Positions 2,756-28,235 of a stretch of DNA of 64,000 nucleotides are shown here, piece after piece (the stretch's first letter is position 1; each line of letters begins with the position of its first letter). The translations under genes and the position numbers were made by a program. This stretch comes from Clostridia bacterium (GTDB lineage Bacteria > Bacillota > Clostridia > Oscillospirales > UBA644), in assembly GCA_017934975.1 (NCBI GenBank), contig JAGBIM010000006.1, positions 2,311 to 66,310 of the forward strand. The letters run 5' to 3'. The notes beneath the pieces were generated by a model. It saw nothing but the letters and a program-made list of their open reading frames with translations, did no database searches and was not told the DNA's origin.

Positions 2756-3410
2756 GTTCTTCTTTTTCTTTTCCCGAGAAAAGAAAAAGAAGAACCAAGA
2801 AAAAGAAAAGCGTGCTCCGACGGATTCCATCCGTCGGGGGGTTCGAAAAAAACTGAATTTGCGGCTTCCCTGTAAATTCAACTTTACTCTCCCGTTCCTC
2901 TTGAACGATGTGAAAGAAATGAGCGATGCGCAAGGGTAAGCCTCCCCTGTGTAAGGGGAGGGGGACCGCGAAGCGGTGGAAGGGTTGTTCGGGTCATAAA
3001 GTAACATTTTCCGTGTCAATCCCCTCAGTCATCTGTGATGACAGCTCCCCTTACTAAGGGGAGCCATGCCGATGTGCCGTGCCTTGCGTTTGTTCCCCTT
3101 TCCGAGAGAACCTCTCTGTGAAATTAGGTTCGGCGTACCGTGCACCCGAGTTTGCCGTCCACTTTCCCGCCATGGGAAAGGGGAAGGGGGACCGCCGCGT
3201 CGCCGTAGTGCGGCGTGGGGGTGGAAGGGGTTTTTGCACGTCTCTTGAACGGTGGGCAATCGGCAAGCGCTGCGCTGACGTATGCCTCCCCTTGCTAAGG
3301 GGGACTTGACGATGTGCCGCGCCTCTTATCACCCTCCTCGCCGCAAGAATTGCGGCGCCATAACGCTTTTCTTTGGTTCTTTTTTTTCTCGTGAAAAAAA
3401 GTGAGACCCG
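2756..3410. repeat. mosaic intergenic repeat cluster (triplex-type module, CCGACGGA palindrome, G-rich CCCCT/AGGGG modules)
   Basis: Modules recur at 7.1, 11.3-11.7, 21.4-21.9, 24.1-24.7 and 27.5-28.0 kb; about 2940-3190 resembles about 11430-11705. Confidence 0.85.
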
Positions 3411-3592
3411 AAAAATGCAAGCCGAAGGCGAAGATTTTTCGATGGTCGATACTTTTGCAGTAGCTGAAAGAACACCGCTTCCTTGCCCCCTCGAATCCCG
3501 TCGAATCAACCTTATTATATAGCGAATTTTCCCATATCTGCAAAATCCCTGCGACAAATTTGTTACGAGAAATTGAAAATCGCAAAAACCTC

Positions 3593-3621
3593 TTGAAAAA
3601 CAGCCCCCATTATGCTATAAT
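3593..3621 (+). promoter_or_regulatory. sigmaA-type promoter
   Basis: TTGAAA-17 nt-TATAAT with extended -10 TG, upstream of the GGAG RBS of CDS 3674. Confidence 0.7.
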
Positions 3622-3673
3622 TATACCATAATAATGCGGCTCTGTCGCCGCAAATAAAAAAAGGAGAGATACC

Positions 3674-6600
3674 ATGAAAAAGACACTCGCGATCCTCATT
3701 TCTGCGATCCTTGTTGTCGCTGCGGTTTGTGCGTTCACCCTCACCTCCGGTGCGGCTGCTGCGCCTTCCGTAACCGTGTACGTTGACGGCGGAGCCGCCA
3801 CCGAACTCAATGCGACCACAACGACCGTAACGCATGCAGGAACCGGTACGTTCGCTTTTGACGCTGCAACCGGTACCCTGACCCTCAACAACTTCAACGG
3901 CAACCTCCGTGTTTTGAACAAAACCGGCGACTTGACCGTGAAGCTCGTCGGCACCAACGTTATTAACACCGGTACTGCCGGCAACGTCTTCGTGATCAAC
4001 AACACCGCTGAAGGTGCTGCTACGAAGATCACCTTCACCGGCGCTGCCGCTACGGACACCCTGACGGTTAAGTCCACCGGCGATTTCCTGTTCAACTTGA
4101 GCGGTAAGGGTGAAATGGTCTTCAAAGACAAGGCCAATGTCACTATCGAATCCATCAAAGACCCCATCCACTTTGCTGGTGCTTGTGTGGGCGGCGGTCT
4201 TCGTATGCAGAACGACGCCAGCCTGTACGTGAACTTCACCGGTACCGGCACCCGCGTTATCGGTTGCAACAACGATGCCAACGCTACCCTCTGGATGGAA
4301 GGCGGTACCATTAAGGTAGACGCTCTCTCCGTGGGCAGCTGGGGTGTTGGACTGGATGTCCACAACCTGGAAATGACCGCCGGTAAGATCGATCTCAACG
4401 TCAAGACCACCGGCCAGGCCGTTGTCGGTCTGCGTGTTGGCGCAGCCGCTGACGGCAAGCCCGCTTCCGGCAAGGGTATCGGTAACTTCGAGGGCGGTAC
4501 CGTTGAAATCGACGTGGAATCTACCCACACTCCCACCGCTGTTTGGAATGGCGGCGCCCGTGTGTACGGTATTTTCCTGCTCCGCGCCGATGCCCTGAAC
4601 TTTGACGGCACCACCGTCACCATCAACGGCAAGATGAACAAGCACGCCGATGCCAACACCGCTTACTGGACCGGCTCCGGCAACCTGATCGGTTCTCAGT
4701 ATTCCAAGAGCATCAACGTCAACGCCGGTACCATCACGCTGAACGGCGCTAACTCCGACGGCGCTTTCGGTATGGAACAGTACGCTGCCGGCCAGGGCGA
4801 CCTGAACCTCAACGGCGGTACCATTAAGGGTACGGCTCAGACCCTCATCCGTATGTGGGGTACCAACAACAACGTTGTTGACTTCGATCCCGATAAGGTT
4901 GACATCTCCGGCTTCACCTGGACCGAACGTATGGTCGGTCTCGGCGCCGGTAAGGCCAATCCCGAAGACAGCGCATCCTTCGGCAACACCATGCTGGGCT
5001 ACAAGAAGTACCCCCTGGCTGCCAAGGTTACCATTACCTCCGCTTCCGGCGCTACCTACGTTCTGAACTCTGCTGATACCAAACTGCCCGCCGCTGCTCT
5101 GACCGATCTCGGTTGCGCTGCCGACGCAGTTTCCTTCGAATTCTACAACAAGACCTACAAGGCTCCCGTTCTGACCCTGAACGGAACCACCGATAAGTTC
5201 GCCAAGATTGACGTCGGCGGCGCTTGCGTCATCGAAGTCAAGGGTGCGAACGTGGTGACCGATCCCGCTGTCAACGGCGGCACCAAGGTTACCAACCAGT
5301 TCGAACTGAGAGGTCCCGCCCTGTTCGTGGGTGTCGGTACCAATCCCACCGTCACCGTGAACGGTTCTTCCGTCGGCGGCTACAACGTCTGTGTCCGTCG
5401 TTACTTTGAAGTCAAAGACGTGAACTTCACCATCAACTCTGAAAACGGCGACGCAATCCACATGGCTCGCCTCGGCTACACCAATACCAACGAAGCAGAT
5501 CCCAACGAATTCGTTCTGACCGGCAAGACCGTGATGAACGTCAACGCTTACGGCAACGGTATGCGTAACGTGGGCGGTAACCAGATCTTCACCATGAAGG
5601 ACGATGCCAAGTTGACCATTAAGCCTGTCGCAAAGCGCGGCGGTGTTGATAACACCGTTCTCGGCAACGGCTTCCAATTGATTGCGGACCGTGACGACGG
5701 TACCGGTACCATGTACCTCACCATGACCCTCTCCGACAACGCCGAACTCAAGATTGAAGGCAAGGGCGTGGAATGCACCCGTCTTAACGTTGCCCGCTAT
5801 GCCGATACCGACGCTGACACCAAGAAACAACTTCAGTCTACCACCAAGGTTATCACCACCTTCACCCTCGAAGACAACTCCAAGTTCGACGTGGAAGGCA
5901 ACGGCCAGGCTCTGTACTTCGCCGTCGGCGGCACCGGATCCGTTACCAACTTCGTCGTGAAGGACAACGCTTCCTTCAAGGCTCTCGCCAACGACAGACC
6001 CGAAACCCATCTGGAACACAACATCGGTAACTATCAGTCCGCGGTTCAGTTCAACGCACTCAAGGTTGACATGGACATTCTGGGCGGCACCTTCTCTGCA
6101 GAAGGCGAACGTATCGGTTGGACTCACGGCGCCCTCGCTTTCCAGGGTTCTACCGATATCGACATCTTCGTAAAGGATGCGAAGTTTGACGTAGTCAGCC
6201 GCAACAACACCAAGGCTGAATATCTCAAGACCCCCAACGACACCACTCCCACCAAGGTGAACAACAACCACATCAACAACGCCATCATCATGCCCGAAGG
6301 CGCGAAGACCGCGACGATCACCTTCGCAGGAAAGGCCGTTGCAAACCTGTCTGCCACCAACGACACCCAGGATAACCGCGGTCACGCTCTGTGGCTCCAG
6401 GACGGTCAGAAGCTGATCGTTCAGGACGAAGCGGTTGTGAACGCCACCGCCGGCGGTACCGCTAAGGCCAACACCGCTGCCGGTATCCATTCCAAGGGCG
6501 GCGACATCCTGGTTAAGGATAAGGCTACGCTGAACGCTTCCGTCACCGGTACGGGCACTGCTGCTCTGACCCTTGAGAAAGACGCTACCCTCACCGTTCA

Positions 6601-6997
6601 GGGCGACGCTAAGGTCAATCTGGACGGCGGCAAGACCGGTGTCGGCGCTCGGAACTACAACGCTTCCTCTGCCGGTTCCATCACCGTGAAGGACAACGCC
6701 GTTCTGATCGCAACCGGTAAGACTGCTATCTCTGATGCAGGCAAGAAGGTTGCCATCTCCGCGAAGACCATCGACGCCGGTGCTGATGCCAAGACTGCGG
6801 AAATCGACGTAGACGCTCCCACCTTCAAGGAAGGCTACATCAAGTTGTACGCAGGCTCCGCTACTCAGGGCGGACAGCAGGGTGGCTCCACCACCAACCC
6901 CGGCACTTCCGACGTGAACGTAGCTCTCTTCGCAGTGGTTGCTCTTGCGACCGTTGCCGTTGCTGCAGCTGTTGTTCTCCGTAAGAAGAGCATCTGA
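3674..6997 (+). CDS. secreted, sortase-anchored beta-helix-type surface protein (Cthe_2159-like carbohydrate-binding)
   Basis: Signal peptide; Gly/Thr/Asn-rich beta-strand repeats (TLTLNN, GGTI, LTVxD); C-terminal NPGTS, hydrophobic helix and RKKSI tail. Confidence 0.75.
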   Translation: MKKTLAILISAILVVAAVCAFTLTSGAAAAPSVTVYVDGGAATELNATTTTVTHAGTGTFAFDAATGTLTLNNFNGNLRVLNKTGDLTVKLVGTNVINTGTAGNVFVINNTAEGAATKITFTGAAATDTLTVKSTGDFLFNLSGKGEMVFKDKANVTIESIKDPIHFAGACVGGGLRMQNDASLYVNFTGTGTRVIGCNNDANATLWMEGGTIKVDALSVGSWGVGLDVHNLEMTAGKIDLNVKTTGQAVVGLRVGAAADGKPASGKGIGNFEGGTVEIDVESTHTPTAVWNGGARVYGIFLLRADALNFDGTTVTINGKMNKHADANTAYWTGSGNLIGSQYSKSINVNAGTITLNGANSDGAFGMEQYAAGQGDLNLNGGTIKGTAQTLIRMWGTNNNVVDFDPDKVDISGFTWTERMVGLGAGKANPEDSASFGNTMLGYKKYPLAAKVTITSASGATYVLNSADTKLPAAALTDLGCAADAVSFEFYNKTYKAPVLTLNGTTDKFAKIDVGGACVIEVKGANVVTDPAVNGGTKVTNQFELRGPALFVGVGTNPTVTVNGSSVGGYNVCVRRYFEVKDVNFTINSENGDAIHMARLGYTNTNEADPNEFVLTGKTVMNVNAYGNGMRNVGGNQIFTMKDDAKLTIKPVAKRGGVDNTVLGNGFQLIADRDDGTGTMYLTMTLSDNAELKIEGKGVECTRLNVARYADTDADTKKQLQSTTKVITTFTLEDNSKFDVEGNGQALYFAVGGTGSVTNFVVKDNASFKALANDRPETHLEHNIGNYQSAVQFNALKVDMDILGGTFSAEGERIGWTHGALAFQGSTDIDIFVKDAKFDVVSRNNTKAEYLKTPNDTTPTKVNNNHINNAIIMPEGAKTATITFAGKAVANLSATNDTQDNRGHALWLQDGQKLIVQDEAVVNATAGGTAKANTAAGIHSKGGDILVKDKATLNASVTGTGTAALTLEKDATLTVQGDAKVNLDGGKTGVGARNYNASSAGSITVKDNAVLIATGKTAISDAGKKVAISAKTIDAGADAKTAEIDVDAPTFKEGYIKLYAGSATQGGQQGGSTTNPGTSDVNVALFAVVALATVAVAAAVVLRKKSI

Positions 6998-7023
6998 GTA
7001 ATCTCTCCTGATTAACGCAATTT

Positions 7024-7053
7024 GGGCCCACGGGTTTTCCCGTGGGCCCTTTT
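7024..7053 (+). terminator. rho-independent terminator
   Basis: GGGCCCACGGG-TTTT-CCCGTGGGCCC followed by TTTT. Confidence 0.8.
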
Positions 7054-7071
7054 GTATGCGTTGGGGGGGGT

Positions 7072-7479
7072 GTTCTTTTTCTTTTTTCACGAGAAAAAAG
7101 AAAAAGAACCAAAAAGAAAAAAGCGTGATCCGACGGATTCCATCCGTCGGGGGGAAGATAAATTATAAAGTGCAAGACCGAGAGGAGGTTTCTTCTCGGT
7201 CCTTTTTGCGGACGGGGGGGTGTACTTCTCTTTCCTTTCGGGAAAGGAAAGAGAAGTACCAAGAGAAAGGAAAGCGTGATCCGACGGATTCCATCCGTCG
7301 GGGGAAAGGGAATGTTTTGTTGCAAGACCGAGAGGAGTTTCTTCTCGGTCTTTTCTCTTGAACGGTGCGAAAGAAGTGGGCGATGCACAAACGCAAGCTC
7401 CCCCTTTTTCCGTTGCAAGGATTGCAACGGACTTCGCTTTTCTTTTGGTTCTTTTCTTTTCACGAGAAAAGAAAAGAAC
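7072..7479. repeat. two ~151-bp repeat units plus one inverted triplex-type module
   Basis: CCGACGGA-N5-TCCGTCGG at 7130 and 7281; Y/R/mirror-R modules at 7072, 7222 and (minus strand) 7437-7479. Confidence 0.9.
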
Positions 7480-7491
7480 ACTCTCCCCGTT

Positions 7492-8550
7492 TCACCGCTT
7501 TTTGAGATATTTCCGCATGTCGATGGCGCAGGCAAGGAGGATAATCAGCCCCTTGATCACGTACTGCAGGTTGGCGTCGATGCTCAAGAAGGTCAGCCCC
7601 ACGAAGATGATCCGCAGCAGCACCACGCCCAAAATCACTCCGCGGATCTTTCCGATGCCGCCCACGAAGGACACGCCCCCGATGACGCATGCGGCGATGG
7701 CGTCCAGCTCGTAGTTCAGCCCCGTGGCGGCGGAGTTGGAGCCGATGCGGGCCGCTTCGATGAAGCCCGTCACCCCGTACAGAACCCCTGCCAGCACGAA
7801 AACTCCGATGATGGTGGCGGTCACGTTCACCCCCGACACCCGCGCCGCCTCCTCGTTGGAGCCCACGGCAAACATGTTTTTCCCGAAAACCGTTTTATTC
7901 CACACGAACCAGATCACCGCCGTAATGGCGATGGAATAAAAAACGTAATTGGGGATGGCCGTGCCTCCGATTTTCAGAAAACTCCCCGTGATCCATTGGG
8001 TATAGGAAGGGTCCAGCCCCGACAGGGATTGGCCGTTGTTGTTCCCGTTCATCAGATACATCAGCAGGATGCCGAACAAGATCAGCTGGGTTGCCAGGGT
8101 GACGATGAAGGGGTGGAGGCGGAACTTTGCCACGCAAAATCCGTTCACCAGCCCGATCAGCCCCCCGATGGCCAGAGCGATGAGCAGGACCACGGGCAGG
8201 GGCAACACCCCCAGGGAGGGGAACATTTTGTTGGGGTAGCCCGCCATTTGCAGGAGGGAGGCGGACACGCAGGCGATGAGCCCCACCGCCCGTCCCGCCG
8301 AAAGGTCGGTTCCCGACAGAATGATGGCCCCCGCGATGCCCAGGGCCAGAGGCAGATTGGCCGCCGAAAGGGACAGAATGTTCACGATGGAGGCGGTGGA
8401 AAGGAAGCGGGGATCGTAGATGACGATGCCAACGATGGCGGCGATGAGAAAGAAATAGAGGGAATTGTTGATGAAAAATTCTTTGCGGCGCAACGTTTTT
8501 TGTTCGGGGGTCATTTCGTCGCGTTGCCGCGTGCGGGTCATGGATTTCAT
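7492..8550 (-). CDS. mglC: galactoside ABC transporter permease
   Basis: GTDLSAGR, NYELDAIAACVIGGVSFVGG; multiple transmembrane helices. Confidence 0.9.
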   Translation of the reverse strand: MKSMTRTRQRDEMTPEQKTLRRKEFFINNSLYFFLIAAIVGIVIYDPRFLSTASIVNILSLSAANLPLALGIAGAIILSGTDLSAGRAVGLIACVSASLLQMAGYPNKMFPSLGVLPLPVVLLIALAIGGLIGLVNGFCVAKFRLHPFIVTLATQLILFGILLMYLMNGNNNGQSLSGLDPSYTQWITGSFLKIGGTAIPNYVFYSIAITAVIWFVWNKTVFGKNMFAVGSNEEAARVSGVNVTATIIGVFVLAGVLYGVTGFIEAARIGSNSAATGLNYELDAIAACVIGGVSFVGGIGKIRGVILGVVLLRIIFVGLTFLSIDANLQYVIKGLIILLACAIDMRKYLKKR

Positions 8551-8563
8551 GGGTTCTCCTTTG

Positions 8564-10054
8564 TTACACGAATTTGGCCGCGAGGCTCATGATCTCTTCC
8601 TGGGTGGTTTCGTCCGCTTGGACGATCCCCGCCGCCCGCCCTGCGGACAGCACCAGGATTCGGTGGCAGACCCCCAACAGCTCGGGCATTTCCCCCGAAA
8701 CGAGGATCACGCCCCGCCCTTGCTTGGCCAGATCGGCTATAATTTTGTAAATTTCGTATTTCGCCCCCACGTCGATGCCGCGGGTGGGCTCGTCCAGAAG
8801 CAGGATCTTCGGATTGGTCAGAAGCCACCGTCCCAGAATCACCTTTTGCTGATTTCCCCCCGAAAGCACGCGGATGGGGGTATGGCGGGAGGGGGTTTTG
8901 ACTTTCAGGGATTGCACCACCGAATCCACGTCCCGTTTCATGGCCTTTTCCTGCAGAAATCCGAATTTTCGGTAGGCGGAAAGGCGGGAAACGACGGTGT
9001 TTTCCTGCACGCTTCGCCCCGGGAAGATCCCCGTGGCGCGGCGCTCCTCCGTCAGGAGGGCAAAGCCGTTGCGAATGGCGGCTCGCGGGGAGGAATTGCG
9101 GATTTCCCGCCCCTCCAGCGTGACCGTTCCTCTTTCCTTGGCGGCAAGTCCGAAGAGCAGCTCCAACAGCTCCGTCCGTCCCGCGCCGTCCAGCCCCGCC
9201 ACCCCCAAAACCTCCCCCTTCCGCAGATCGAAGGAGACCTCCCGCAGGGGAGCGTAGCGCCCCGTAAGGTCCCGCACCGAGAGCAGATTTTCTTGGGTTG
9301 CGGGGGCTTTTTCGGGAAAGCGTTGGGTCAACTCCCGCCCCACCATCAGACGGATGATCTCTTCCATCGTCAACTCCGCCGCAGGGCGGGTGGCCACGGT
9401 TTTGCCGTCCCGCATCACCGTCACCTCGTCGGAGATTCGCAGAATTTCTTCCATTTTATGGGAAATATACACGATGCCGCACCCCTTGTCCCGCAGAGTC
9501 TTGATGATGCGGAACAACCCCTCCGTTTCCTGCTCCGTCAAGGACGAGGTGGGCTCGTCGAAGACGATGATCTTCGCATCGTAGGACACGGCCTTGGCAA
9601 TTTCGATCATTTGGCGGCGGGACACGGACAGGGTCCCTGCCACGGCGTCGGGATTCTGGGAAAAGCCCAAGGATTCGAAAAGGTCCAGGGTGTCCTTCCG
9701 CATTTTCCCCTTGCGCACCACGCCAACCCGGGCGGGATAGCGCCCCAGCCACAGATTGTCCGCCACCGTGCGGGAGAGGGCCTGGTTCAACTCCTGATGC
9801 ACCATGGCGACCCCCTGCTCCAGCGCCTCCTTGGAGGAGGCAAATTCCACGGGGCGCCCCTCCAGAAAAATCTCGCCCTTGTCTTTTGCGTAGATGCCGA
9901 AGAGACACTTCATCAGGGTGGATTTCCCCGCGCCGTTTTCCCCCATCAGCGCGTGAACCGTCCCCCGTTTTACCGTCAGGTTTGCGTTGTCCAGCGCCTT
10001 CACCCCGGGGAAGGATTTGCAGATTCCCCGCATCTGAAGCAGAATTTCTTCCAT
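8564..10054 (-). CDS. mglA: sugar ABC transporter ATP-binding protein (two ATPase domains)
   Basis: GENGAGKST, FDEPTSSL, LSGGNQQKV, LDEPTRGIDVGAK. Confidence 0.9.
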   Translation of the reverse strand: MEEILLQMRGICKSFPGVKALDNANLTVKRGTVHALMGENGAGKSTLMKCLFGIYAKDKGEIFLEGRPVEFASSKEALEQGVAMVHQELNQALSRTVADNLWLGRYPARVGVVRKGKMRKDTLDLFESLGFSQNPDAVAGTLSVSRRQMIEIAKAVSYDAKIIVFDEPTSSLTEQETEGLFRIIKTLRDKGCGIVYISHKMEEILRISDEVTVMRDGKTVATRPAAELTMEEIIRLMVGRELTQRFPEKAPATQENLLSVRDLTGRYAPLREVSFDLRKGEVLGVAGLDGAGRTELLELLFGLAAKERGTVTLEGREIRNSSPRAAIRNGFALLTEERRATGIFPGRSVQENTVVSRLSAYRKFGFLQEKAMKRDVDSVVQSLKVKTPSRHTPIRVLSGGNQQKVILGRWLLTNPKILLLDEPTRGIDVGAKYEIYKIIADLAKQGRGVILVSGEMPELLGVCHRILVLSAGRAAGIVQADETTQEEIMSLAAKFV

Positions 10055-10055
10055 A

Positions 10056-11123: not shown

Positions 11124-11284
11124 AATCGTCCTCCGTGGATGGTTTTTTCCATAGTATATCCGTTGCGGGCAAAAAAATGCGACGGAAAAAATTTTCCGTC
11201 GGAATCGTATATATTATAGGTAGAGGAGATCTGTTTTTTTTGCACGAAAAGAAAAAAACGGTTTGAACAAGATCTCGCGCGCAG

Positions 11285-11705
11285 GGGCCCTTCCGCATTT
11301 TCTCCCGAAAATGCTCCGCCCCTCGCCGCTTCGCGGCAAGGGGCGGCCCGCGGCGGACGCCGCGGGGGAAGGGGTTTTTGCACGACTCTTGAACGGTGCG
11401 CAATCCGTGAGCGAGGCGCTGACGTAAGCCTTCCCTTAGTAAGGGAAGGGGGACCGCGAAGCGGGGGAAGGGATTGTCCCGCGCGACGCAGTCGCAGATC
11501 CCTTTTTACTTGAATCGTAACATTTTCCGAGTCAATCCCCTCAGTCATCTACGATGACAGCTCCCCTTACTAAGGGGAGCCAAACCGATGTGCCGTGTCT
11601 TGCGTTTGTTCCCCTTTCCGAGAGAACCTCTCTGTGAAATCAGGTTCGGCGCCCTGTGCACCCGAGCTTGCCGCCTCCTTTCCCGCCACGGGAAAGGGAA
11701 GGGGT
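11285..11705. repeat. mosaic intergenic repeat cluster
   Basis: Inverted copy of the GC-rich module at 24590-24678, and a direct copy of about 2940-3190. Confidence 0.85.
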
Positions 11706-11773
11706 TTGTTTGCGCAAAGAGTGTGCTTATCACGGACAACAAAACAAAAACAAACGCAGCACTTTGCGGACAC

Positions 11774-11805
11774 AAAAAAACTGCCCGAAGTTCGAGCAGT
11801 TTTTT
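11774..11805 (-). terminator. bidirectional-type terminator after the SDR gene
   Basis: AAAAAAACTGCCCGAA-G-TTCGAGCAGTTTTTT. Confidence 0.65.
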
Positions 11806-11810
11806 AATCT

Positions 11811-12884: not shown

Positions 12885-12892
12885 AAAATTCC

Positions 12893-14928: not shown

Positions 14929-14943
14929 TTCGGAGGGTTTGTA

Positions 14944-18144: not shown

Positions 18145-18153
18145 GGAGACCGT

Positions 18154-18699: not shown

Positions 18700-18708
18700 G
18701 GGATTGCG

Positions 18709-20582: not shown

Positions 20583-20673
20583 CACATTTCGACAAATTCC
20601 CAAAAGTCCTTAACAAGATTGTAACAATCATATTCTATAATAGTACAAAGATTTCGGGAAAGGAGGACTTCTT

Positions 20674-21288
20674 ATGGCTCTTGAACTGTCGGTCAGCGCT
20701 CTTTTGGGGTATCTGATCGGAAATATTATTCCCGCCGCCCTTTTGGATAAGATCAAAAAAGCGGGTCTGCGGAAAAAAGGCACGAGGAATTTAGGTGCCA
20801 CCAACACTCTTTTGGTGCTGGGCAAAAAATGGGGAGTTCTCGTTTTGATCTTCGATATGCTGAAGGCCTTCTTCGCCGTATATCTGGCTCAGTGGATCTT
20901 CCCCCTGCAACCTTTGTCGGGCATGGTCAGCGGAACCTGTGCCGTGCTGGGCCACGTGTTCCCCTTCTATATGGGATTTCGGGGCGGCAAGGGCCTTGCG
21001 GCCTTCGGCGGATTGGTGCTGGCGGTGGATTGGCGTCTGTTCCTGCTTCTGTTAGGTGTGGACGCGGTGCTGGTGCTTCTGACCGACGTGTGGGTGGTCA
21101 CCCCCTTCTTTGCGGGGATCTTCTTCCCCCTGCTCTACGGAATTTTCTTCCACGATCTGTGGGGTGCTCTCGTGGCGGCTCTGGCAGGTGCCGTTCTGAT
21201 CTATAAAAACGTGGAAGGCCTGCGCCGTGCCCTGCGGGGAGAAGACAAAAGCGTGCGGCAGACCCTGTTTAAGAAAAGAGAGAAATAA
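20674..21288 (+). CDS. plsY: glycerol-3-phosphate acyltransferase
   Basis: NLGATN, DMLKA, GHVFP, FRGGKG; transmembrane helices. Confidence 0.88.
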   Translation: MALELSVSALLGYLIGNIIPAALLDKIKKAGLRKKGTRNLGATNTLLVLGKKWGVLVLIFDMLKAFFAVYLAQWIFPLQPLSGMVSGTCAVLGHVFPFYMGFRGGKGLAAFGGLVLAVDWRLFLLLLGVDAVLVLLTDVWVVTPFFAGIFFPLLYGIFFHDLWGALVAALAGAVLIYKNVEGLRRALRGEDKSVRQTLFKKREK

Positions 21289-21302
21289 TCAAATGGAAAA
21301 AC

Positions 21303-21337
21303 AAGCCCCGACGAAATGTTTCCGTCGGGGCTTTTTT
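21303..21337 (+). terminator. rho-independent terminator
   Basis: AAGCCCCGACG...CGTCGGGGCTT followed by a T-run. Confidence 0.75.
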
Positions 21338-21371
21338 ATATTTCGGGTGTGAGAATCTTTGTGACCCAAAC

Positions 21372-21884
21372 AACCCTTCCACCGCTTCGCGGTCCCCCTC
21401 CCCTTACTAAGGGGAGGCTTACGATTGCGCATCGTTTATCGATTGCACACCGTTCAAGAGACGTGCAAAAACCCCTTCCACCACCACGCCGCACTACGGC
21501 AGGCGCGGCGGTCCCCCTTCCCCTTCCTTTGGCAAGGAAGTGGACGGCGAGGACAGAGGGCGAGCCTTGCCAAGGGGCGTTAAGAGAGATGTTCCTTAAA
21601 AAGTTTTGCAATAGAATTGCGCGGCAGGGGAATTCAATAAAACCTTTCCCCCGACGGATGAAATCCGTCGGATCACGCTTTCCTTTCTCTTGGTACTTCT
21701 CTTTCCTTTCCCGAAAGGAAAGAGAAGTACACCCCCCCCGTCCGCAAAAAAAAGACCGAGAAGAAACTCCTCTCGGTCTTGCATAAAAAAATTCGTTTTT
21801 CCCCCGACGGATGGAAATCCGTCGGATTTCGCTTTTCTTTCTTTTGGTACTTTTCTTTCTTTTCTCGAAAAGAAAGAAAAGTAC
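21372..21884. repeat. mosaic repeat cluster in inverted orientation
   Basis: CCGACGGA palindromes at 21651 and 21804; triplex-type modules at 21678-21730 and 21832-21884; G-rich modules at 21372-21545. Confidence 0.88.
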
Positions 21885-21908
21885 ACGTTCCCCATCCCCT
21901 CAACCCAA

Positions 21909-23231
21909 TCAGTGGTACTTGGGCAGGTAATCGCCGTGGGCCACGATCAGATCGTCCACCATCTTCTTGATGGTGTCGATGTCCAGTTCGCTGGCGGTGT
22001 GGGGATCCAGCATGGCGGCCTGATAGATATGCTCCAGCTTCTTGGTGTGAGCCGCTTCGATGGTCAACAACTGCACGTTGATATTGGTCATGTTCATGGC
22101 GGCACACTGCACGGGGAGGGCGCCCACGTGGCAACCGTGGATGCCGTACGCGTCTACCAAGCAGGGCACTTCCACGCAGGCTTCCGCGGGCAGGTTGGTG
22201 ATCAGCCCGTTGTTCAGCACGTTTCCGCCGATCTTATAGGGGTTGCCCGTAACCATGGATTCCATGATGTGGGAGGCGTATTCCCGGGAGCGCTTGTGCT
22301 CCTTCACGCCGTTCTGCAACAGTTCCTGACATTCCTTCTTCCAGCCGTTGATCTGGTTCACACAGCGGCGGGGATATTCGTCCAGAGGAATGTTGTATTT
22401 TTCGATGAGCTCGGGATACTTGCTCTTGATGTAGAACATATTGTATTCCGCGTTATGCTCGCTGGATTCGGTGCAGTAGTAGCCGAAATTTTTGATATAT
22501 TCCAGACGGACTTTATTGTTACATTCGGGATCGGCGATCTTCGCGTCGATGAGGGACTTGATTTCGGGATACAGATCCACCCCGTTCTTGTCCTTCAGCT
22601 CCAGCAGCCAAGCCATGTGGTTGATGCCGGCGATGAGCTCCTTTGCCCCTTCCAGACGGGCGGTGTCCAGTCCGAGGGTCTTGAACAGGGATTCGGAGCA
22701 GACCTGAACGCTGTGGCAGAGACCCACGGTCTTCACGCCGGTGTAACGCTGCATATAGCCGGTGAGCATGGCCATGGGATTGGTGTAGTTCAAGAACCAT
22801 GCGTCGGGGCAGACTTCTTCCATGTCACGGGCAAAATCCTCCATGACGGGAATGGTGCGCAGGGCACGCATAATGCCCCCGATGCCCAGGGTGTCGGCGA
22901 TGGTCTGACGCAGGCCGTATTTCTTGGGAACCTCAAAGTCGATGATGGTGCAGGGATCGTAGAGCCCCACCTGAATGGCGTTGACCACGAAATCCGCGCC
23001 GCGCAGAGCGTCCTTACGGTTTTCCACGCCCAGATAGCTTTCAATCTTGGCGTTGCTGCCCAGAGTTTTGCGCATGGCCTCCAGAATGGTGGCGCTTTCC
23101 TTCAGCCGATCCCCGTCGATGTCGTAGAGGGCAAAGGTGCTGTCCTTCAAAGATTCGGAGCACATGCAGTCTCCGATGACGTTACGGGCAAAAACGGTAC
23201 TTCCCGCGCCCATAAAAGTAATTTTAGCCAT
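21909..23231 (-). CDS. melA: GH4 alpha-galactosidase/alpha-glucosidase
   Basis: KITFMGAGS, QTIADTLGIGG, NYTNPM, GLCHSVQ, AGINHMAW, TESSEH. Confidence 0.92.
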   Translation of the reverse strand: MAKITFMGAGSTVFARNVIGDCMCSESLKDSTFALYDIDGDRLKESATILEAMRKTLGSNAKIESYLGVENRKDALRGADFVVNAIQVGLYDPCTIIDFEVPKKYGLRQTIADTLGIGGIMRALRTIPVMEDFARDMEEVCPDAWFLNYTNPMAMLTGYMQRYTGVKTVGLCHSVQVCSESLFKTLGLDTARLEGAKELIAGINHMAWLLELKDKNGVDLYPEIKSLIDAKIADPECNNKVRLEYIKNFGYYCTESSEHNAEYNMFYIKSKYPELIEKYNIPLDEYPRRCVNQINGWKKECQELLQNGVKEHKRSREYASHIMESMVTGNPYKIGGNVLNNGLITNLPAEACVEVPCLVDAYGIHGCHVGALPVQCAAMNMTNINVQLLTIEAAHTKKLEHIYQAAMLDPHTASELDIDTIKKMVDDLIVAHGDYLPKYH

Positions 23232-23340
23232 ATCAAATCCTCCTTGCGGTTTTTTCTTTATTGTAGCAAAGAATTCACAAATATTCCATTGATATTCGTG
23301 GCAAAAACTTGTATAATTGTTAGATATAGGGGGGGATTGT

Positions 23341-24111
23341 ATGACACACAGTGAAATTGTCATCAACGAAAACTACGGAGGGTTGAATCCCGTGCAGTAC
23401 GGACGGGAAACCTGCGCGCCCCTCCATTCCTACGGGCCTGCGGTGCGGACCCATTGGCTTTTGCATTACGTCAAGTCGGGGAAGGGAGTTTTCGTGCGGG
23501 AGGGGGAAACCTTTCCGGTCAAGAAGGGGGAAGTCTTTGTGATTCCGCCCTATAAAGAGACCTTTTATCAGGCCGACGAGGAGGACCCGTGGGATTACGT
23601 CTGGATCGGCTTTACGGTCAACGGAGCCGCTCCCGAATGTTTTTCCAAGGCGGTGTTGCACGTGCCCGAGGCGGAGGGGGTTTTCGAGGAAATGCGAAGA
23701 TGCAAGGAATACGAGGGCGGACGGAGCGCCTTTCTGACCTCCTGTCTTTGGAAATTGGTTGGATTTTTGCTGGAATCCGAAACCAAAAAGCCCGACTACG
23801 TGGACAAGGCGCTGAGTTATATTCACGCGGAATACGCCAATCCCATCAACGTGCAGACCATCGCCGACGGGCTGAATCTGGACCGCAGTTATTTTTCCAC
23901 CCTCTTCACGCAAAAGGTTGGGATGCCGCCCCGGGATTATCTGCGGGCCTATCGTCTGAATCGGGCGGCGGAGCTGATGGTGCGGTACGGAGAGCGTCCC
24001 TCTACGGCGGCCCTGTCCGTGGGATACGAGGATCTGTTCCACTTTTCCAAGTCCTTCAAGCAGTTTTTCGGACTCTCTCCCCGGGCTTACGTCAAGGCGA
24101 AGAAGGAGTGA
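23341..24111 (+). CDS. AraC family transcriptional regulator
   Basis: Cupin N-terminus and C-terminal VGYEDLFHFSKSFKQFFGLSP; divergent from melA. Confidence 0.92.
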   Translation: MTHSEIVINENYGGLNPVQYGRETCAPLHSYGPAVRTHWLLHYVKSGKGVFVREGETFPVKKGEVFVIPPYKETFYQADEEDPWDYVWIGFTVNGAAPECFSKAVLHVPEAEGVFEEMRRCKEYEGGRSAFLTSCLWKLVGFLLESETKKPDYVDKALSYIHAEYANPINVQTIADGLNLDRSYFSTLFTQKVGMPPRDYLRAYRLNRAAELMVRYGERPSTAALSVGYEDLFHFSKSFKQFFGLSPRAYVKAKKE

Positions 24112-24133
24112 CGGCGGGGACGGGAGTGGGGGT

Positions 24134-24678
24134 GTTCTTTTCTTTCTTTTCGGGAAAAGAAAGAAAAGAACCAAAAGAAAGAAAAGCGTGATCCGACGGA
24201 TTCTATCCGTCGGGGGAAAGATAAATTACGAAGTGCAAGCCCGAGCGGAGTTTTTCCTCTCGGGTTTTTTTCGATGGGGGTGTTCTTCTTTTTCTTTTCT
24301 CGGGAAAAGAAAAAGAAGAACCAAGAAAAAGAAAAGCGTGATCCGACGGATTCCATCCGTCGGGGGAAAGATAAATTACGAAGTGCAAGACCGAGAGGAA
24401 TTTTCTTCTCGGTCTTTTTTTGTCGACGGGGGTGTCCTTCTCTTTCCTTTCGAGAAAGGAAAGAGAAGGACCAAGAGAAAGGAAAGCGAAGCCGACGGAT
24501 TGTATCCGTCGGGGGAAGGAGAAAAACGGAATTTGCCGCAAGGCGAACAGATCGAATCGCGGAGCGATCTATCGCCCTTTGCCCCGCCCTTCCCCCGCGG
24601 CCCCCGCCGCGGGCCGCCCCCGCGCCGCGAAGCGGCGGGGGCGGAGCATTTTCTCCCGAAAATGCGGAAGGGCCCCCT
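24134..24678 (+). repeat. three tandem ~150-bp units plus a GC-rich tail
   Basis: Palindromes at 24193, 24343 and 24492; near-duplicate at 27489-28035. Confidence 0.92.
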
Positions 24679-24787
24679 GCAAAAGTTTTATTATTTTTAA
24701 CAAATGGAATCTTGCGTAGATCCCTTACGATATGATATAATGAAAAAAAGGAGTCTTTTTGTAAATCCTTTTCAGGAGGTCGATTTG

Positions 24788-27475
24788 ATGAAGCAAATTT
24801 GGAAAAACCACAAACTCCTCGCATCGGTTCTTGCAGCTGTTTTGGTTCTTGCTCTCGGGGTCGCTGTGCTGATCCCCCTCCTCGCACCCGATCAAGACGA
24901 GCCTGCCGACGAAGGACTGACTCGCGGTTCATGGGCAGCGCTTCTCGGCGAAACCTTTGGCTATTACGAAAGCTCCAAAAAAGAGCCCTATTATTCCGAC
25001 GTCCCCTCCGACCACCCTCTCTTTTCTACGGTCCAGGCCTTGAAAGAGGATGGGATTCTGGAATACGAAGGGGCCTTCGAAGCCGATAACCCCGTCCTTT
25101 TCGACGAAATGCTTGCGGACGGCGTAAAGATTTACGGCGAAACCTATTTGACAAATCGTCTGAAGAAAGCCGACCCCACGGCGGAGGATTTCAAGGACTA
25201 CATCCGAACTGCCGTCACCCTTTCCGCCCAATATCAAGGCGACAGTCGCCTTACGCAGATCCAGGCCTCCCAATGGCTGACCCAACTGCACGACGGATGG
25301 CTGAACCGGGAATTCGGCAACTCTTTCGTTTCCGAGAAGCAGGAGTCCGTGAAGGAAAATTTGGAAGAAACCGAATATACCCTGACGGAAAACACTCTGA
25401 CTCTGGAAACCGAAGCCCCCGTTCAGGTGGGCGAGATCCTCCTGCTGGGTCCCACGAAGGACTATCCCAACGGTGTGGCCCGCAAGGTGGAGGCGATTGT
25501 CGACGGAGATGGGGACGGCTACGTTCTGACCGTTTCCACCCCCGCTCTGGAAGAAATTTTCGAGAATTTCACTCTGGAATTTTCTCAAACCCCCGAACCG
25601 GGTGATTTCATCCCCGCGGAAGGCATCACCGTGGAACAAACCGCGGAGGGAGAAGATCTGCTGGTCAGCATCAACCCCTCCATCTTCGGCGGGTCGGATC
25701 AAATTTTGCCCCCGGGGACCCCTGCGGCAGGCACGGTAAAACCTCTTGGTGGATTTTCCTCCGGAATTTCCGGAACCTTCTTTGACCGCAGTATCACCGT
25801 TTCCTCCGAGGATCTTCCTTTCGGGAACAAGACCCCTTTGACCGTGAACCCCGACTTTCCCGGAGGCTCCTTCAATGGAGCGGACAATCGGGCGGACGGG
25901 ATCTTTTTGGACGAAAACAACAACAAAAAGAGCAAATTTGACGCAGGCTTCGAGTTGGAATGCGGCCTGCGGTTGAGCGATTTCCGCATCAGCGGCGCTC
26001 TGAATTGGAAGGGCTTGATCTATGCCTCCGAATTCAGCGTAAGCACGTCTCTGAAGGTGACCCCCTATTTCCGCCTGCGGGGCAACGCCCAACAGTCCTT
26101 CAAACTGGGCTCCATCCCTCTGCAGTTGGGCTACGGCTTTTCCGCACGGGTGGATCTGTACGTGGTCATTTCCATCGACGGCGAAGTTTCCGTAGAACCC
26201 ACCATTTATTGCCGCGGCTCCGTTCAGAAAGCCTCCGGCTCTTATTTGCCGCGGGTTTCGGGCTCTGCCGCCTGCAACACGGAAATCTCCGTCAGCGCCA
26301 ATCTGGGCGTTCAGATCGGACCGGATATTACCCTCTCCTTCCTGGACGTGGTGGATTTCGTGGATGCCTACATTCTGGTGGGCGTGGGTGCTTCCGCAAC
26401 CTGGAACAGCAATACCCCCGACGATCTCAGCGTGGAAATTTATCTGCCCACCCTGCACGTGGGCATCGGCATGAACGAGGATACCCTTCTTTCGGTCTTG
26501 CTGGACGTCTTTGGAGATGCACGGCACGATTGGGCGATTTTAGACAACAACGGCGGCACCTGGCGTTGCCCCCTTTCCTTCACCCGCACCTTCCGGCTGG
26601 TGAAAGCGGAACCCCTGGTCTGGGATTTCAAGGACGGCGTTCTCTCCGTTTCGGGAACGATCCCCGATTATATCGGAGAAGACACGGGTGAGTTTATGCC
26701 TCCCTGGTTCCGAGGGACCCAGGAAGATCCCGGTACGGAGGAGGAACCCAATTCCGCGAACGTGGAGATTAAGAAAGTCATCGTTGCCGAAGGGGTGACC
26801 CATATCGGCGCGGGGGCCTTCAGCGCTTTGTCGGGCTTGGAAGAGGTGGTGTTGCCCTCCAGCCTGCAGACCATTGGGCAGGACGCCTTCAGCGGATGTG
26901 AAGAACTGAAATCCATTACCATCCCCGACGGAGTAACCGAAATCGGCAAATGCGCCTTTGGATTCTGTCCGAATCTGGAGCAGGTGAATCTGGGCAAGGG
27001 GCTGACGAAACTGGGGGCGGAGACCTTCTACGGTTGCTCGGCTCTGAAGGAAGTCGTCCTTCCCGATTCGCTGAAAACCATTGGAATGAGCGCGTTTTAT
27101 CAATGCACCTCTCTGAAAACCGTCACCTTCGGCAAGGGCCTTGAGAAGATGGGGCTGGAGGTTTTTTACGGTTGCTCCGCGCTGGAAGAGCTCGCTTTGC
27201 CCGAGGGCCTGGAACGGATTCCCCCCAAGGCGTTCTACGATTGCACGGCGCTGAAAAAGGCGGTTCTCCCCGCGTCTCTTCGCGAAATCGGGATGCTGGC
27301 CTTCGGAAACTGCCGCGCGCTGACCGAGTGTAACCGGGCTTCCGACCTGCATTCGGATAACACAGCCTTTTACAACTGCGTGGGCTTGGGCGAACACGAT
27401 TACGGGAATTCGCAGGTTTGGGAAGACGCCTACGCACAGCGGTACGAGCATTTTGTCTCGGATAGGATTGAGTAA
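24788..27475 (+). CDS. membrane-anchored surface protein with SLH-like N-terminus and BspA-type leucine-rich repeats
   Basis: N-terminal transmembrane helix; LTRGSWA/YSDVP SLH-like segment; C-terminal LPxSLxxIGxxAFxGC repeats. Confidence 0.85.
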   Translation: MKQIWKNHKLLASVLAAVLVLALGVAVLIPLLAPDQDEPADEGLTRGSWAALLGETFGYYESSKKEPYYSDVPSDHPLFSTVQALKEDGILEYEGAFEADNPVLFDEMLADGVKIYGETYLTNRLKKADPTAEDFKDYIRTAVTLSAQYQGDSRLTQIQASQWLTQLHDGWLNREFGNSFVSEKQESVKENLEETEYTLTENTLTLETEAPVQVGEILLLGPTKDYPNGVARKVEAIVDGDGDGYVLTVSTPALEEIFENFTLEFSQTPEPGDFIPAEGITVEQTAEGEDLLVSINPSIFGGSDQILPPGTPAAGTVKPLGGFSSGISGTFFDRSITVSSEDLPFGNKTPLTVNPDFPGGSFNGADNRADGIFLDENNNKKSKFDAGFELECGLRLSDFRISGALNWKGLIYASEFSVSTSLKVTPYFRLRGNAQQSFKLGSIPLQLGYGFSARVDLYVVISIDGEVSVEPTIYCRGSVQKASGSYLPRVSGSAACNTEISVSANLGVQIGPDITLSFLDVVDFVDAYILVGVGASATWNSNTPDDLSVEIYLPTLHVGIGMNEDTLLSVLLDVFGDARHDWAILDNNGGTWRCPLSFTRTFRLVKAEPLVWDFKDGVLSVSGTIPDYIGEDTGEFMPPWFRGTQEDPGTEEEPNSANVEIKKVIVAEGVTHIGAGAFSALSGLEEVVLPSSLQTIGQDAFSGCEELKSITIPDGVTEIGKCAFGFCPNLEQVNLGKGLTKLGAETFYGCSALKEVVLPDSLKTIGMSAFYQCTSLKTVTFGKGLEKMGLEVFYGCSALEELALPEGLERIPPKAFYDCTALKKAVLPASLREIGMLAFGNCRALTECNRASDLHSDNTAFYNCVGLGEHDYGNSQVWEDAYAQRYEHFVSDRIE

Positions 27476-27488
27476 GAGCGAGGTGCGT

Positions 27489-28035
27489 GTACTTCTCTTT
27501 CCTTTCGAGAAAGGAAAGAGAAGGACCAAGAGAAAGGAAAGCGAAGCCGACGGATTTCATCCGTCGGGGGAAAGATAAATTACGAAGTGCAAGACCGAGA
27601 GGAGTTTTCTTCTCGGTCTTTTTTTGTCGACGGGGGTGTTCTTCTTTTTCTTTTCTCGGGAAAAGAAAAAGAAGAACCAAGAAAAAGAAAAGCGTGATCC
27701 GACGGATTGTATCCGTCGGGGGAAAGATAAATTACGAAGTGCAAGACCGAGAGGAGTTTTTCCTCTCGGGTTTTTTCGATGGGGGTGTACTTTTCTTTCT
27801 TTTCACGGGAAAAGAAAGAAAAGTACCAAAAGAAAGAAAAGCGAAGCCGACGGATTGTATCCGTCGGGGGAAGGTGAAAAAACGGAATTTGCCGCAAGGC
27901 GAACAGATCGAATCGCGGAGCGATCTATCGCCCTTTGCCCCTCCCTTCCCCCGCGGCTCCCGCCGCGGGCCGCCCCCGCGCCGCGAAGCGGCGGGGGCGG
28001 AGCATTTTCTCCCGAAAATGCGGAAGGGCCCCCTG
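27489..28035 (+). repeat. three tandem ~150-bp units plus a GC-rich tail
   Basis: Palindromes at 27547, 27699 and 27847; tail nearly identical to 24520-24678. Confidence 0.92.
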
Positions 28036-28232: not shown

Positions 28233-28235
28233 AGT

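Follow-up and report, generated by a model that had tools for sequence, protein, structure and literature searches.

The window, by which we mean the whole 64-kb stretch of DNA that was analysed, carries 12 intact copies of a structured repeat and one decayed copy (minus strand, about 3327-3401), all at the places where an earlier note on this DNA had put them. Read on the coding strand, the element consists of a G-rich lead-in, a perfect A/T-rich pyrimidine/purine hairpin of 13 to 18 bp with the pyrimidine arm leading (P1), 5 nt, a third (purine) tract of 9 to 14 nt that mirrors the loop-proximal purine arm, a spacer of 5 to 7 nt, and a G+C hairpin of 8 to 10 bp with a TNC loop (P2). The copies and the terminator-like hairpins beside them are listed below.

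2756-2837, plus strand: element copy, 12 nt past the stop of an NAD synthase gene (1187-2743); P1 2756-2795, mirror tract 2797-2810 (AAGAAAAAGAAAAG), P2 2817-2837
3327-3401, minus strand: decayed copy (nhmmer score, 49.8); third tract AAAGAAAAG retained, both P1 arms altered, P2-like hairpin GCCGCAA..TTGCGGC
7072-7150, plus strand: element copy, unit 1 of a 2-unit array downstream of a 1107-aa ORF (3674-6997) and that ORF's terminator; mirror tract 7111-7123 (AAAAAGAAAAAAG)
7222-7301, plus strand: element copy, unit 2 of the 2-unit array; mirror tract 7261-7274 (AAGAGAAAGGAAAG)
7409-7479, minus strand: element copy, 12 nt past the stop of a minus-strand mglC-like permease gene (7492-8550); mirror tract 7437-7446 (AAAAGAAAAG), P2 CCGTTGCAA..TTGCAACGG
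21651-21730, minus strand: element copy, unit 2 of a minus-strand array; mirror tract 21678-21691
21804-21884, minus strand: element copy, 24 nt past the stop of a minus-strand alpha-galactosidase gene (21909-23366); mirror tract 21832-21845
24134-24213, plus strand: element copy, unit 1 of 3 (units of about 150 bp), 22 nt past the stop of an AraC-type regulator gene (23317-24111); mirror tract 24173-24186
24282-24363, plus strand: element copy, unit 2 of 3; mirror tract 24323-24336
24387-24426, plus strand: intrinsic-terminator-like hairpin and T run (AAGACCGAGAGGA..TCTTCTCGGTCTT TTTTT), closing array unit 2
24434-24512, plus strand: element copy, unit 3 of 3; closing pairs GTCC/GGAC, mirror tract 24473-24486
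27489-27567, plus strand: element copy, unit 1 of an array, 13 nt past the stop of a 923-aa leucine-rich-repeat protein gene (24704-27475); closing pairs mismatched (GTAC/GGAC), mirror tract 27528-27541
27638-27719, plus strand: element copy, unit 2 after the leucine-rich-repeat gene; mirror tract 27679-27692
27787-27867, plus strand: element copy, unit 3 after the leucine-rich-repeat gene; mirror tract 27828-27841
27591-27630, plus strand, and 21780-21743, minus strand: terminator-like hairpin identical to that at 24387, with a variant at 27747-27779 (plus strand)

The build described in the earlier note (pyrimidine arm, loop, complement, 5 nt, mirror) is that of all 12 copies, with a loop of 2 to 4 nt, a 5-nt stretch reading GAACC, GTACC or GGACC, and a mirror covering the loop-proximal 10 to 14 nt. 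Its five purine variants were recovered, as were its closing pairs GTTC/GAAC, GTAC/GTAC and GTCC/GGAC and the single mismatched copy at 27489. Two features had been overlooked: P2, which stands 5 to 7 nt farther on in every window copy, and orientation, every window copy being co-oriented with the gene that ends just upstream. Copies of both orientations occur on either side of the window's GC-skew sign change. Rfam 15, run over the window at gathering scores, matched a tRNA (28157-28229) and no element; for one array, E values up to 1 gave only sub-threshold look-alikes of miRNA hairpins (at most 29 bits, against cut-offs of 70 to 98).

Covariation of the three tracts

The survey covered the whole 1.83-Mb assembly and 842 kb from eight sister species (nine genomes), the sister-species loci being picked around BLAST matches of one unit from this genome. 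Elements were kept only if P2 was present and the first hairpin was intact (10 bp or more, with no more than 2 mismatches); this removed 43 of 199 hairpin-plus-purine-tract matches, mostly unrelated sequences, and left 156 elements. Together they give good support to a cis element of 80 to 95 nt in an uncultured genus of gut Clostridia. The element is abundant in that single genus, where the pattern R8-GWACC-R9 matched 46, 49, 28, 27, 25, 19, 18, and 13 times in eight species and 1, 3, and 3 times in G003, G005, and G011, respectively; other families of the order (G110, G144, and G122) hold a few copies of the same build.

The 5-nt linker supplies four bases to the closing pairs of the stem, and its fifth base is C. 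Closing pairs covary (pair 2: TA, 98; AT, 33; CG, 7; GC, 2), and three positions of P2 vary among three to four types of Watson-Crick pair. Among the non-Watson-Crick pairs, G·U types are not in excess either in P1 (T·G, 8; C·A, 10) or within P2 (G·T, 1; A·C or C·A, 4). In 73 of 155 elements, the stem called as P2 has next to it a T·G pair, which would be U·G in sense RNA. The P1 loop is of the NNGA type, and the P2 loop is TNC in 113/151. Purine tracts are about 77% A and 23% G, with G residues seldom adjacent (3 GG steps where 12.5 would be expected; P = 0.0002).

Exact mirrors account for 49 of the 52 intact copies in this assembly, which use 11 different tracts. The earlier note had proposed looking genome-wide for third tracts that vary independently of the stem; over 36 tract types in nine species (28 with an exact instance), the tract follows the stem exactly in 132 of 156 elements, with one mismatch in 19 and with more in 5, copy counts that overstate independent events because the copies share descent. 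Of 82 distinct combinations of arm and tract, 60 are exact. T-A·A or C-G·G triplets occupy 1783 of 1864 positions (95.7%), and positions 6, 10, and 12 alternate between the two with few mixed cases. In a fixed register, 128/156 elements are exact, against a mean of 46 and a maximum of 60 when third tracts were shuffled 2000 times inside their length classes; a chance origin of the mirror relation is excluded. Most exact tract types (24 of 28) are not mirror symmetric, so that a direct-repeat reading leaves at least one to two mismatches and a mirror reading none. The commonest tract, AAAAGAAAGAAAAG (29 copies), is mirror symmetric save for its last G, so that in it mirror and direct repeat are indistinguishable.

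Orthologous loci form 18 clusters, whose 48 elements stand at comparable distances beyond the stop. Species differ in tract type at 15 of the 18, and the third tract still follows the stem. The iPGM locus carries an intact element in G011 and G005 and a decayed one in G003; in another genus the element is absent, and a plain terminator follows the stop.

The three tracts thus co-evolve as T-A·A and C-G·G, which argues that selection preserves triple-helix potential. To our knowledge, no templated DNA process yields reversed, uncomplemented (mirror) copies, and twofold-symmetric proteins recognise inverted or direct repeats, not mirror repeats, so a triple helix would be the only known interaction that fits. 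Judged from sequence, it is well supported that the ability to form a triple helix is kept by selection, and the covariation, including that at the 15 differing orthologous loci, upholds the earlier note's proposal that selection acts on a triple helix rather than on sequence. Equally well supported is a predicted class II (purine motif) potential of the coding strand and a class IV (T·A-T, C+·G-C) potential of the template strand, in keeping with the hairpin-plus-mirror geometry pointed out earlier and with the published classes (PMC4666352). Dozens of repeats with covariation in the style of a triple helix are unusually clear evolutionary evidence for a selected three-stranded structure.

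Gene context and likeness to known elements

A sense ORF stops at most 40 nt upstream in 105 of 156 elements and a convergent ORF in 26 of 156 (29/57 versus 5/57 in this genome alone). The upstream genes, among them those for MetH, DnaA, iPGM, IDH, and a sigma factor, have no common function. Placement between the stop codon and terminator of ordinary genes, in gene orientation, is well supported. A separate sense-strand terminator-like hairpin lies downstream in 45/151 elements by a strict rule and in 61/154 by a relaxed rule, which found 53/154 on the opposite strand. P2 itself was rejected as an intrinsic (Rho-independent) terminator, a G+C hairpin directly followed by a U run being present in only 7/151. 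With Watson-Crick pairs alone modelled, the predicted fold of the sense RNA comprises P1, P2, and the terminator (-56.6 kcal/mol; z = -3.3), and antisense RNA also folds (-51.9 kcal/mol; z = -5.5). A search for promoter-like sites reading into elements from downstream found none.

The family is an A/T-rich, orientation-locked, and previously undescribed variant among bacterial intrastrand-triplex repeats, which include PIT elements, BoxC, and TMECO (Holder et al. 2015, PMC4666352; Hoyne et al. 2000, as cited there). It shares with these the order pyrimidine block, loop, purine block, short loop, purine block (class II; complement, class IV), and it is likewise intergenic, multi-copy, and lineage restricted, with copy numbers diverging among close relatives. 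The ITxF rule for classes II and IV describes consecutive Y, R, and reverse-Hoogsteen R tracts on one strand, with stems of 6 to 15 nt, at most one mismatched triplet, and loops of 1 to 6 nt (PMC4666352), and the present elements fit it: blocks measure 9 to 14 nt, loop 1 measures 2 to 4 nt, loop 2 measures 5 nt (137/143), and 151/156 elements have at most one mismatch. TMECO is G/C rich, with mirror-symmetric, near-invariant 9-nt blocks and without strand bias or a fixed gene relation (PMC4666352), whereas the present A-rich family has blocks of varying length, at least 28 covarying tract types, four covarying closing pairs, an obligatory P2, and a lock to the gene's 3' end and orientation. 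Identity with TMECO/BoxC was rejected, since the consensus CCCTCNCCC N3-6 GGGNGAGGG N3 GGGNGAGGG (PMC4666352) is unmatched by such A-rich tracts.

H-DNA and GAA·TTC repeats are likewise homopurine-homopyrimidine mirror repeats with a short centre and a coding-strand purine run, but the arms here are short, and an extra upstream complementary arm brings all three strands onto one strand. With ENE/MALAT1 and H-type pseudoknots (telomerase RNA, SAM-II, and preQ1-II), the element shares long A/U-rich triple-helix potential, isolated G-C triplets, and a position near the transcript 3' end. An ENE/MALAT1-type triplex in the sense transcript, which needs a pair of U-rich strands around an A-rich one (U·A-U), was rejected, as that strand has one pyrimidine and two purine tracts and only the antisense composition fits; the sense transcript allows only the disputed purine motif, lacks a U-rich internal loop, and, unlike ENE/MALAT1, belongs to a bacterial, multi-copy element. 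REP/BIME repeats resemble it as short, structured intergenic repeats just past genes, single or arrayed and of variable copy number, but the hairpin here is perfect and A/T rich, and the mirrored third tract has no REP counterpart. A REP/RAYT system was rejected on the lack of a cognate Y1 transposase (RAYT, PF01797), with 0 matches in this 71%-complete assembly and positive controls in 6 of 14 reference genomes.

Candidate folding molecules and roles

Our preference, a tentative one, is for a transcription-coupled DNA triplex near the terminator, acting as a 3'-end and insulation module. R-GAACC-R' (an exact mirror in 132/156), with its purine run in the coding strand, is a textbook H-palindrome, and P1 is perfectly palindromic; as RNA polymerase passes, the negative supercoiling in its wake could extrude hairpin and triplex in the DNA. 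The resulting three-stranded block, possibly with an R-loop, would impede polymerases at the gene end and, with P2 and the downstream terminator, make up a joint module. From the observed anatomy, covariation, placement, orientation, and orthologous-locus conservation, we infer triplex formation itself, DNA as the folding molecule, and an effect on transcription. Transcription-driven triplexes are known at GAA·TTC repeats. The introduction of PMC4538819 describes H-DNA that arises behind RNA polymerase and blocks polymerase downstream of an H-palindrome, with blockage favouring purine runs in the coding strand. The linker length is what a fold-back loop or the centre of an H-palindrome would call for, and the absence of a G·U excess is a pointer to DNA over RNA.

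Several observations count against the DNA triplex. Within the purine motif the weak triplets are A·A-T, and with tracts of about 23% G the template-strand pyrimidine motif would be the chemically better triplex; isolated G residues likewise suit C+·G-C spacing on the other strand. P2 and the strand-specific loops have no role under a DNA model, and both look like transcript features. The T·G pair flanking P2, the covariation of the closing pairs, and the small share of elements with a sense terminator-like hairpin (by the relaxed rule 61/154, against 53/154 on the opposite strand) also speak against it. An RNA:DNA hybrid would be weak over an A/U-rich stretch, making an R-loop unlikely.

Formation of the triple helix in RNA, as a sense purine motif of 9 to 14 layers or as a MALAT1-like antisense helix (U·A-U/C+·G-C), is possible but rather doubtful. 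If real, it would be the first bacterial mRNA 3'-end triple helix, in the sense form a purine-motif RNA triplex, whose existence is disputed; on either strand, the more than 28 natural triple-compensatory variants would make a ready mutational series.

The sense form, which we regard as fairly unlikely, is a 3'-UTR structure of P1, the A-rich tract (A·A-U, G·G-C), and P2, a natural purine-motif RNA triple helix that would shield the transcript from 3'-to-5' decay or keep ribosomes off the terminator. It agrees with the sense orientation between stop and terminator, the predicted sense fold, the strand-specific loops, the Watson-Crick covariation of P2 and the U·G-type pair beside it, and the functionally unrelated upstream genes, as for a general mRNA-end element. 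Isolated major-groove triples of the A·A-U and G·G-C types are found in tRNA, and a helix of poly(A·A·U) was reportedly described in 1987; RNA-strand purine-motif triplexes are, however, disputed or reported as non-forming, and neither P1 nor the interior of P2 shows a G·U excess. On the coding strand, four closing pairs and an in-register third strand after a 1-nt linker seem sterically incompatible, which would make the geometry problematic.

A repeat akin to REP or MITE elements, selfish or once mobile, whose folded single strand (hairpin plus triplex) an enzyme would recognise to copy or move it, with no gain to the host and placement by target choice, is unlikely. Strongly variable copy number within the genus (13 to 49; 1, 3, and 3), tandem arrays, same-build copies in other families, and tract types common to several loci, which suggest copying or conversion between copies, speak for it; the persistence of elements at the same loci in different species, mirror included, speaks against it, as does the missing PF01797 transposase in the 71%-complete assembly, and no terminal inverted repeats or target duplications were noticed in passing.

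Improbable as well is a class IV (pyrimidine-motif) fold on the opposite strand, 5'-P2'-Y3-G-GUUC-Y1-loop-R, either as antisense RNA, in the manner of MALAT1 or telomerase RNA (U·A-U with isolated C+·G-C), or as template-strand DNA, although its chemistry is the best of the options, given A/T-rich tracts with isolated G residues. Pyrimidine-type intrastrand triplexes are known to form in RNA, and known RNA triple helices run in the order Hoogsteen strand, Watson-Crick pyrimidine strand, purine strand, which is also that of the antisense strand here. The antisense RNA folds well, P2' with the U-rich tract scores as terminator-like in 4 window copies, and the four untripled closing pairs with the 1-nt linker may resemble loop 1 of H-type pseudoknots, which crosses the deep groove. 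Such a fold accounts neither for elements being locked to the orientation of the upstream gene nor for the terminators on the sense strand, no promoter-like site leads into the elements from downstream, and A·C against T·G pairs (14 versus 9) show no clear excess.

That the mirror is a side effect of A/G sequence of low complexity, or the work of a process or protein not yet known, with no triple helix involved, is very improbable: the near-symmetry of AAAAGAAAGAAAAG and the non-independence of copies lend it something, but no templated process is known to us that gives mirror copies, an alternative hairpin between third tract and pyrimidine arm is possible for symmetric tracts alone, and the asymmetric exact tract types fit a mirror only, in step with the exactness of most distinct arm-and-tract combinations.

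Structure of the repeat and covariation of its three tracts

An earlier note on this DNA had claimed 12 copies of a repeat, and each was found where it had been placed when the window sequence was read. On its own strand, the element (80 to 95 nt, after stop codons) starts with a G-rich lead-in ending in T, then GTTC (or GTAC, GTCC), a 10- to 14-nt pyrimidine tract, a 2- to 4-nt loop, and the exact complement including GAAC (or GTAC, GGAC), which together make up an A/T-rich hairpin (P1). One C follows, and then a purine tract (the third tract) that is the purine arm of P1 in reverse reading. Two parts were absent from the earlier note. A second, G+C-rich hairpin (P2) lies 5 to 7 nt 3' of the third tract in every copy (usual form, CCGACGGAT-TCC-ATCCGTCGG; at 7409-7431, CCGTTGCAA..TTGCAACGG), and the array unit of ~150 bp closes with a terminator-like hairpin and a T run. 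Coordinates of P1, third tract, and P2 were determined for the 12 window copies. Array units run in the order P1, mirror tract, P2, A-rich spacer, and terminator-like hairpin (GACCGAGAGGA..TCTTCTCGGTC plus T run), with different tract variants in adjacent units.

Tandem arrays and post-array stretches in the window (arrays of 2 to 3 units each; period, 148 to 154 bp)
7072-7350: tandem array
21651-21884: tandem array
24134-24530: tandem array
27489-27880: tandem array
~24513-24650: ~130-nt stretch after the last unit of a plus-strand array
~27868-28000: ~130-nt stretch, near-identical to the preceding one, after the last unit of a plus-strand array

The ~130-nt stretches consist of AAAACGGAATTTGCCGCAAGGCGAACAGATCGAATCGCGGAGCGATCTATCGCC and then a G+C-rich palindromic part; AAAACGGAATTTGCGGC-like starts also occur 3' of other genomic copies. 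Some variants of the element (loci L072, L074-L076, and L078 [G008] and G000:C4:197286) carry a near-loop inverted pair, ..CCGTTC ga GAACGG.. or ..TTGTTC ga GAACAA.., which forms the GTTC/GAAC closing motif anew in the tip of the hairpin; opposite the inverted pair, the third tract retains G or A.

The assembly (1.83 Mb, 34 contigs, 53% G+C, 71% complete; the window is contig 17) was scanned for pyrimidine-arm/purine-arm hairpins of at least 11 bp with at most one mismatch that had a C and then a purine tract on their 3' side. This gave 52 elements (49 exact mirrors, 11 different third tracts), and a profile search of the genome, with the profile built from these 52, gave 57 full-length copies. 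For covariation, the comparison set was the whole genome plus 60 stretches (842 kb) around matches in eight sister species, and the scan asked for hairpins only, with no mirror required. A purine tract lay just 3' in 199 of the 631 hairpin views, and 146 of the 199 were exact mirrors (no mirror mismatches), in a set whose sister loci had been picked around matches to one unit. Those with P2 as well numbered 156 (a set conditional on intact P1 and P2) and carried 36 different third tracts; mirror mismatches were absent in 132, single in 19, and more numerous in 5, which upholds, across the genome and the eight sister species, the claim that stem and third tract change together.

Counted by position (n = 1864), triplets were T-A·A in 1387 cases and C-G·G in 396; position 10 was split 62 versus 63 across these two states, with 9 mixed. 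Exact matches at fixed register numbered 128, against a mean of 46 and a maximum of 60 when third tracts were permuted within length classes. Of the 28 tract types with an exact instance, 24 are asymmetric; these 24 rule out the third tract as a direct repeat, and an alternative hairpin of third tract and pyrimidine arm is possible for symmetric tracts only. Covariation of the closing pairs at the base of P1 had also been claimed and was recovered at pair 2 (TA, 98; AT, 33; CG, 7; GC, 2; mismatch, 2). P2 covaries too (pairs 1, 3, and 6 counted from the loop), and the distance from purine arm to third tract is exactly 5 nt in 137 of 143 elements.

Gene ends, orthologous loci, and relatives

Gene ends were assessed by stop-codon proximity. 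In 105 of the 156 elements, the stop codon of a sense open reading frame (ORF; at least 80 codons) lies no more than 40 nt upstream of P1, and in 26 a convergent ORF ends no more than 40 nt past P2; elements with no nearby ORF stop are mostly second or third array units. The upstream ORF products identified (NAD synthase [gene supported by NCBIfam], MglC, alpha-galactosidase, AraC-type regulator, MetH, DnaA, isocitrate/isopropylmalate dehydrogenase, iPGM, PyrI, SpoIIE, sigma factor, and others) share no common theme. Window copies lie in both orientations, each that of its gene. An orientation set by replication is unlikely, because both orientations occur on either side of a weak GC-skew sign change in the window.

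When elements were paired on the last 150 residues encoded by the upstream ORF, 48 of them fell into 18 cross-species clusters with similar stop-to-element distances; 15 of the 18 held more than one tract type, and most elements there were exact mirrors. Intact elements, of three tract types, occur at the iPGM locus in genomes G000, G001, G004, G005, G008, G009, and G011. In G003, a species with almost no copies, the element there is present in decayed form (locus L130, contig C79), which is consistent with loss in that lineage of a factor maintaining the family. A terminator hairpin lies 3' of the element at this locus in G011 and G005 and is kept in G003; one genome from a different genus has the terminator immediately after the stop codon. 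Retention at orthologous loci and the iPGM comparison together indicate that the element is old and retained and probably falls within the transcribed 3' part of the gene.

By BLAST with one unit, the family is present in 10 of the 11 other congeneric genomes searched (no match in G003), with only weak matches (E of ~0.001 or weaker) in four other genera. Animal-gut MAGs with the titles Eubacteriales or Clostridia bacterium came up in an exact-pattern scan of the genome collection. In a scan of 401 genomes of the order for the pattern R8-GWACC-R9, with a reversed-pattern control, counts were 3 to 49 per genome within the genus and 0 to 3 outside it, about the control level, with the exception of G144 (7 matches; G110 had 3). 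The other members of the genus had 27, 18, and 25 (G001, G002, and G007) but only 1 and 3 in G003 and G005. A few elements of the same build, including a GAAC-C or GTAC-C linker, occur in G110, G144, and G122, which belong to other families of the order. Contigs from four short-read DNA runs end at the repeats and were uninformative about the element. Separately, 5.5- to 6.8-kb contigs in four MAGs from three families of the order (L138-L141: G163:C9, G220:C8, G361:C10, and G233:C5) are identical over the ~140 nt compared, which include a purine mirror repeat that lacks any hairpin arm; the explanation is either a mobile element shared by the four or bin cross-contamination.

A probable triple helix and the candidate folding strands

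The element is real, and the observation is much stronger than was visible to the reader who wrote the earlier note. To our knowledge, no templated process makes a backward copy without complementing it, and twofold-symmetric proteins recognise inverted or direct repeats rather than mirror repeats. A triple helix is the one known interaction that demands the observed mirror relation, and on the three-tract covariation the triplex proposed earlier is the best available reading. In the published terms, as set out in PMC4666352, the coding strand falls in class II (purine-motif one-strand triplex motifs) and the template strand in class IV (pyrimidine-motif ones). One-strand triplex repeats of bacteria have been catalogued for 25 years with no function assigned; the best studied, BoxC/TMECO, hardly varies, and comparative evidence for its structure is lacking for that reason. 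TMECO/BoxC has the same block order as the element but, unlike it, is rich in G/C, varies very little, and shows no bias of strand or gene (PMC4666352).

The present family is a new A/T-rich, orientation-locked, covarying variant of such repeats. It supplies the missing comparative evidence in dozens of natural triple-compensatory variants, in cross-species retention at orthologous gene ends, and in a strict tie to transcription direction, and it opens the old question of whether bacterial cells use extended triple helices to direct tests, for which short oligonucleotides and a simple reporter would do. No Rfam family matched the element, and no promoter-like sites were found in or beside the elements on either strand; P2 was itself terminator-like in only 7 of 151 cases and so is not a terminator. 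Our literature search found no description of the family; the ITxF lists of PMC4666352, outside that search, may include A/T-rich motifs of such build.

We tentatively favour a DNA triplex coupled to transcription at the gene end. P1 is a perfect palindrome, which would count toward a DNA fold, and R-GAACC-R' is an H-palindrome whose purine run lies on the coding strand; according to PMC4538819, H-DNA arises behind RNA polymerase and blocks polymerase downstream. A fold in the sense RNA is possible and somewhat less probable. A transcript-level role is suggested by the placement and orientation at gene 3' ends, the presence of P2, strand-specific P1 loops (ACGA, 21; GA, 21; AGGA, 20; GGGA, 11) whose reverse-complement forms are rare (TCGT, 2; TCCT, 0), a TNC loop of P2 in 113 of 151, and a pair of U·G type next to P2 (73 of 155 elements). 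Against a sense-RNA triplex, it is disputed whether RNA strands form the purine motif (PMC7583470 and PMC4666352), and G·U is not in excess among the mismatches (T·G or G·T, 9, versus C·A or A·C, 14); wobble asymmetry gave no clear signal for RNA versus DNA or for strand. If it is RNA that folds, the family would bear on whether the disputed purine-motif RNA triplexes exist, or would give the ENE/MALAT1 helices of transcript 3' ends a counterpart in bacteria.

That the element is simply a selfish repeat seems unlikely; no Y1 transposase or RAYT was found in the 71%-complete assembly. We also doubt, to a similar degree, a class IV fold of the other strand. Its A/T-rich composition and dispersed G residues speak for it, and the 1-nt linker and four untripled closing pairs would suit a Hoogsteen strand connected to the pyrimidine arm at its 5' end, to judge by pseudoknot geometry, and would be ill-suited to a purine strand that leaves the purine arm at its 3' end and folds back. 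The loop-1 rule of pseudoknots is the background here; for the sense-RNA fold the background is tRNA base triples and a reported poly(A·A·U) helix, and for the DNA reading it is reported work on GAA·TTC transcription. That no triplex forms at all is very improbable. A triplex of nascent RNA with the DNA duplex in cis ranks low, since the RNA hairpin would first sequester the U-rich arm and the fixed 5-nt linker would be left unexplained.

Neighbouring features

Other features in the window
3158-3238, plus strand: copy of a second, G-rich repeat family
~21519-21545: copy of the G-rich repeat family
28157-28229: tRNA gene
~28000-48000: low-G+C stretch (43 to 49%, versus 54 to 58% in the remaining window)

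The G-rich repeat family, which also lies on many other contigs and came up dozens of times when the genome was scanned for hairpins, has a hairpin with a conserved stem mismatch (TCCACTTTCCC-GCCAT-GGGAAAGGGGA). Next come AGGGGGACC and a GC hairpin resembling GCCGCG..CGCGGC, and the repeat continues with GGTGGAAGGGG and a T run. It too is a pyrimidine-arm/purine-arm hairpin followed by purines, with a partial mirror only. The low-G+C stretch starts just after the tRNA gene and therefore may be an acquired island.
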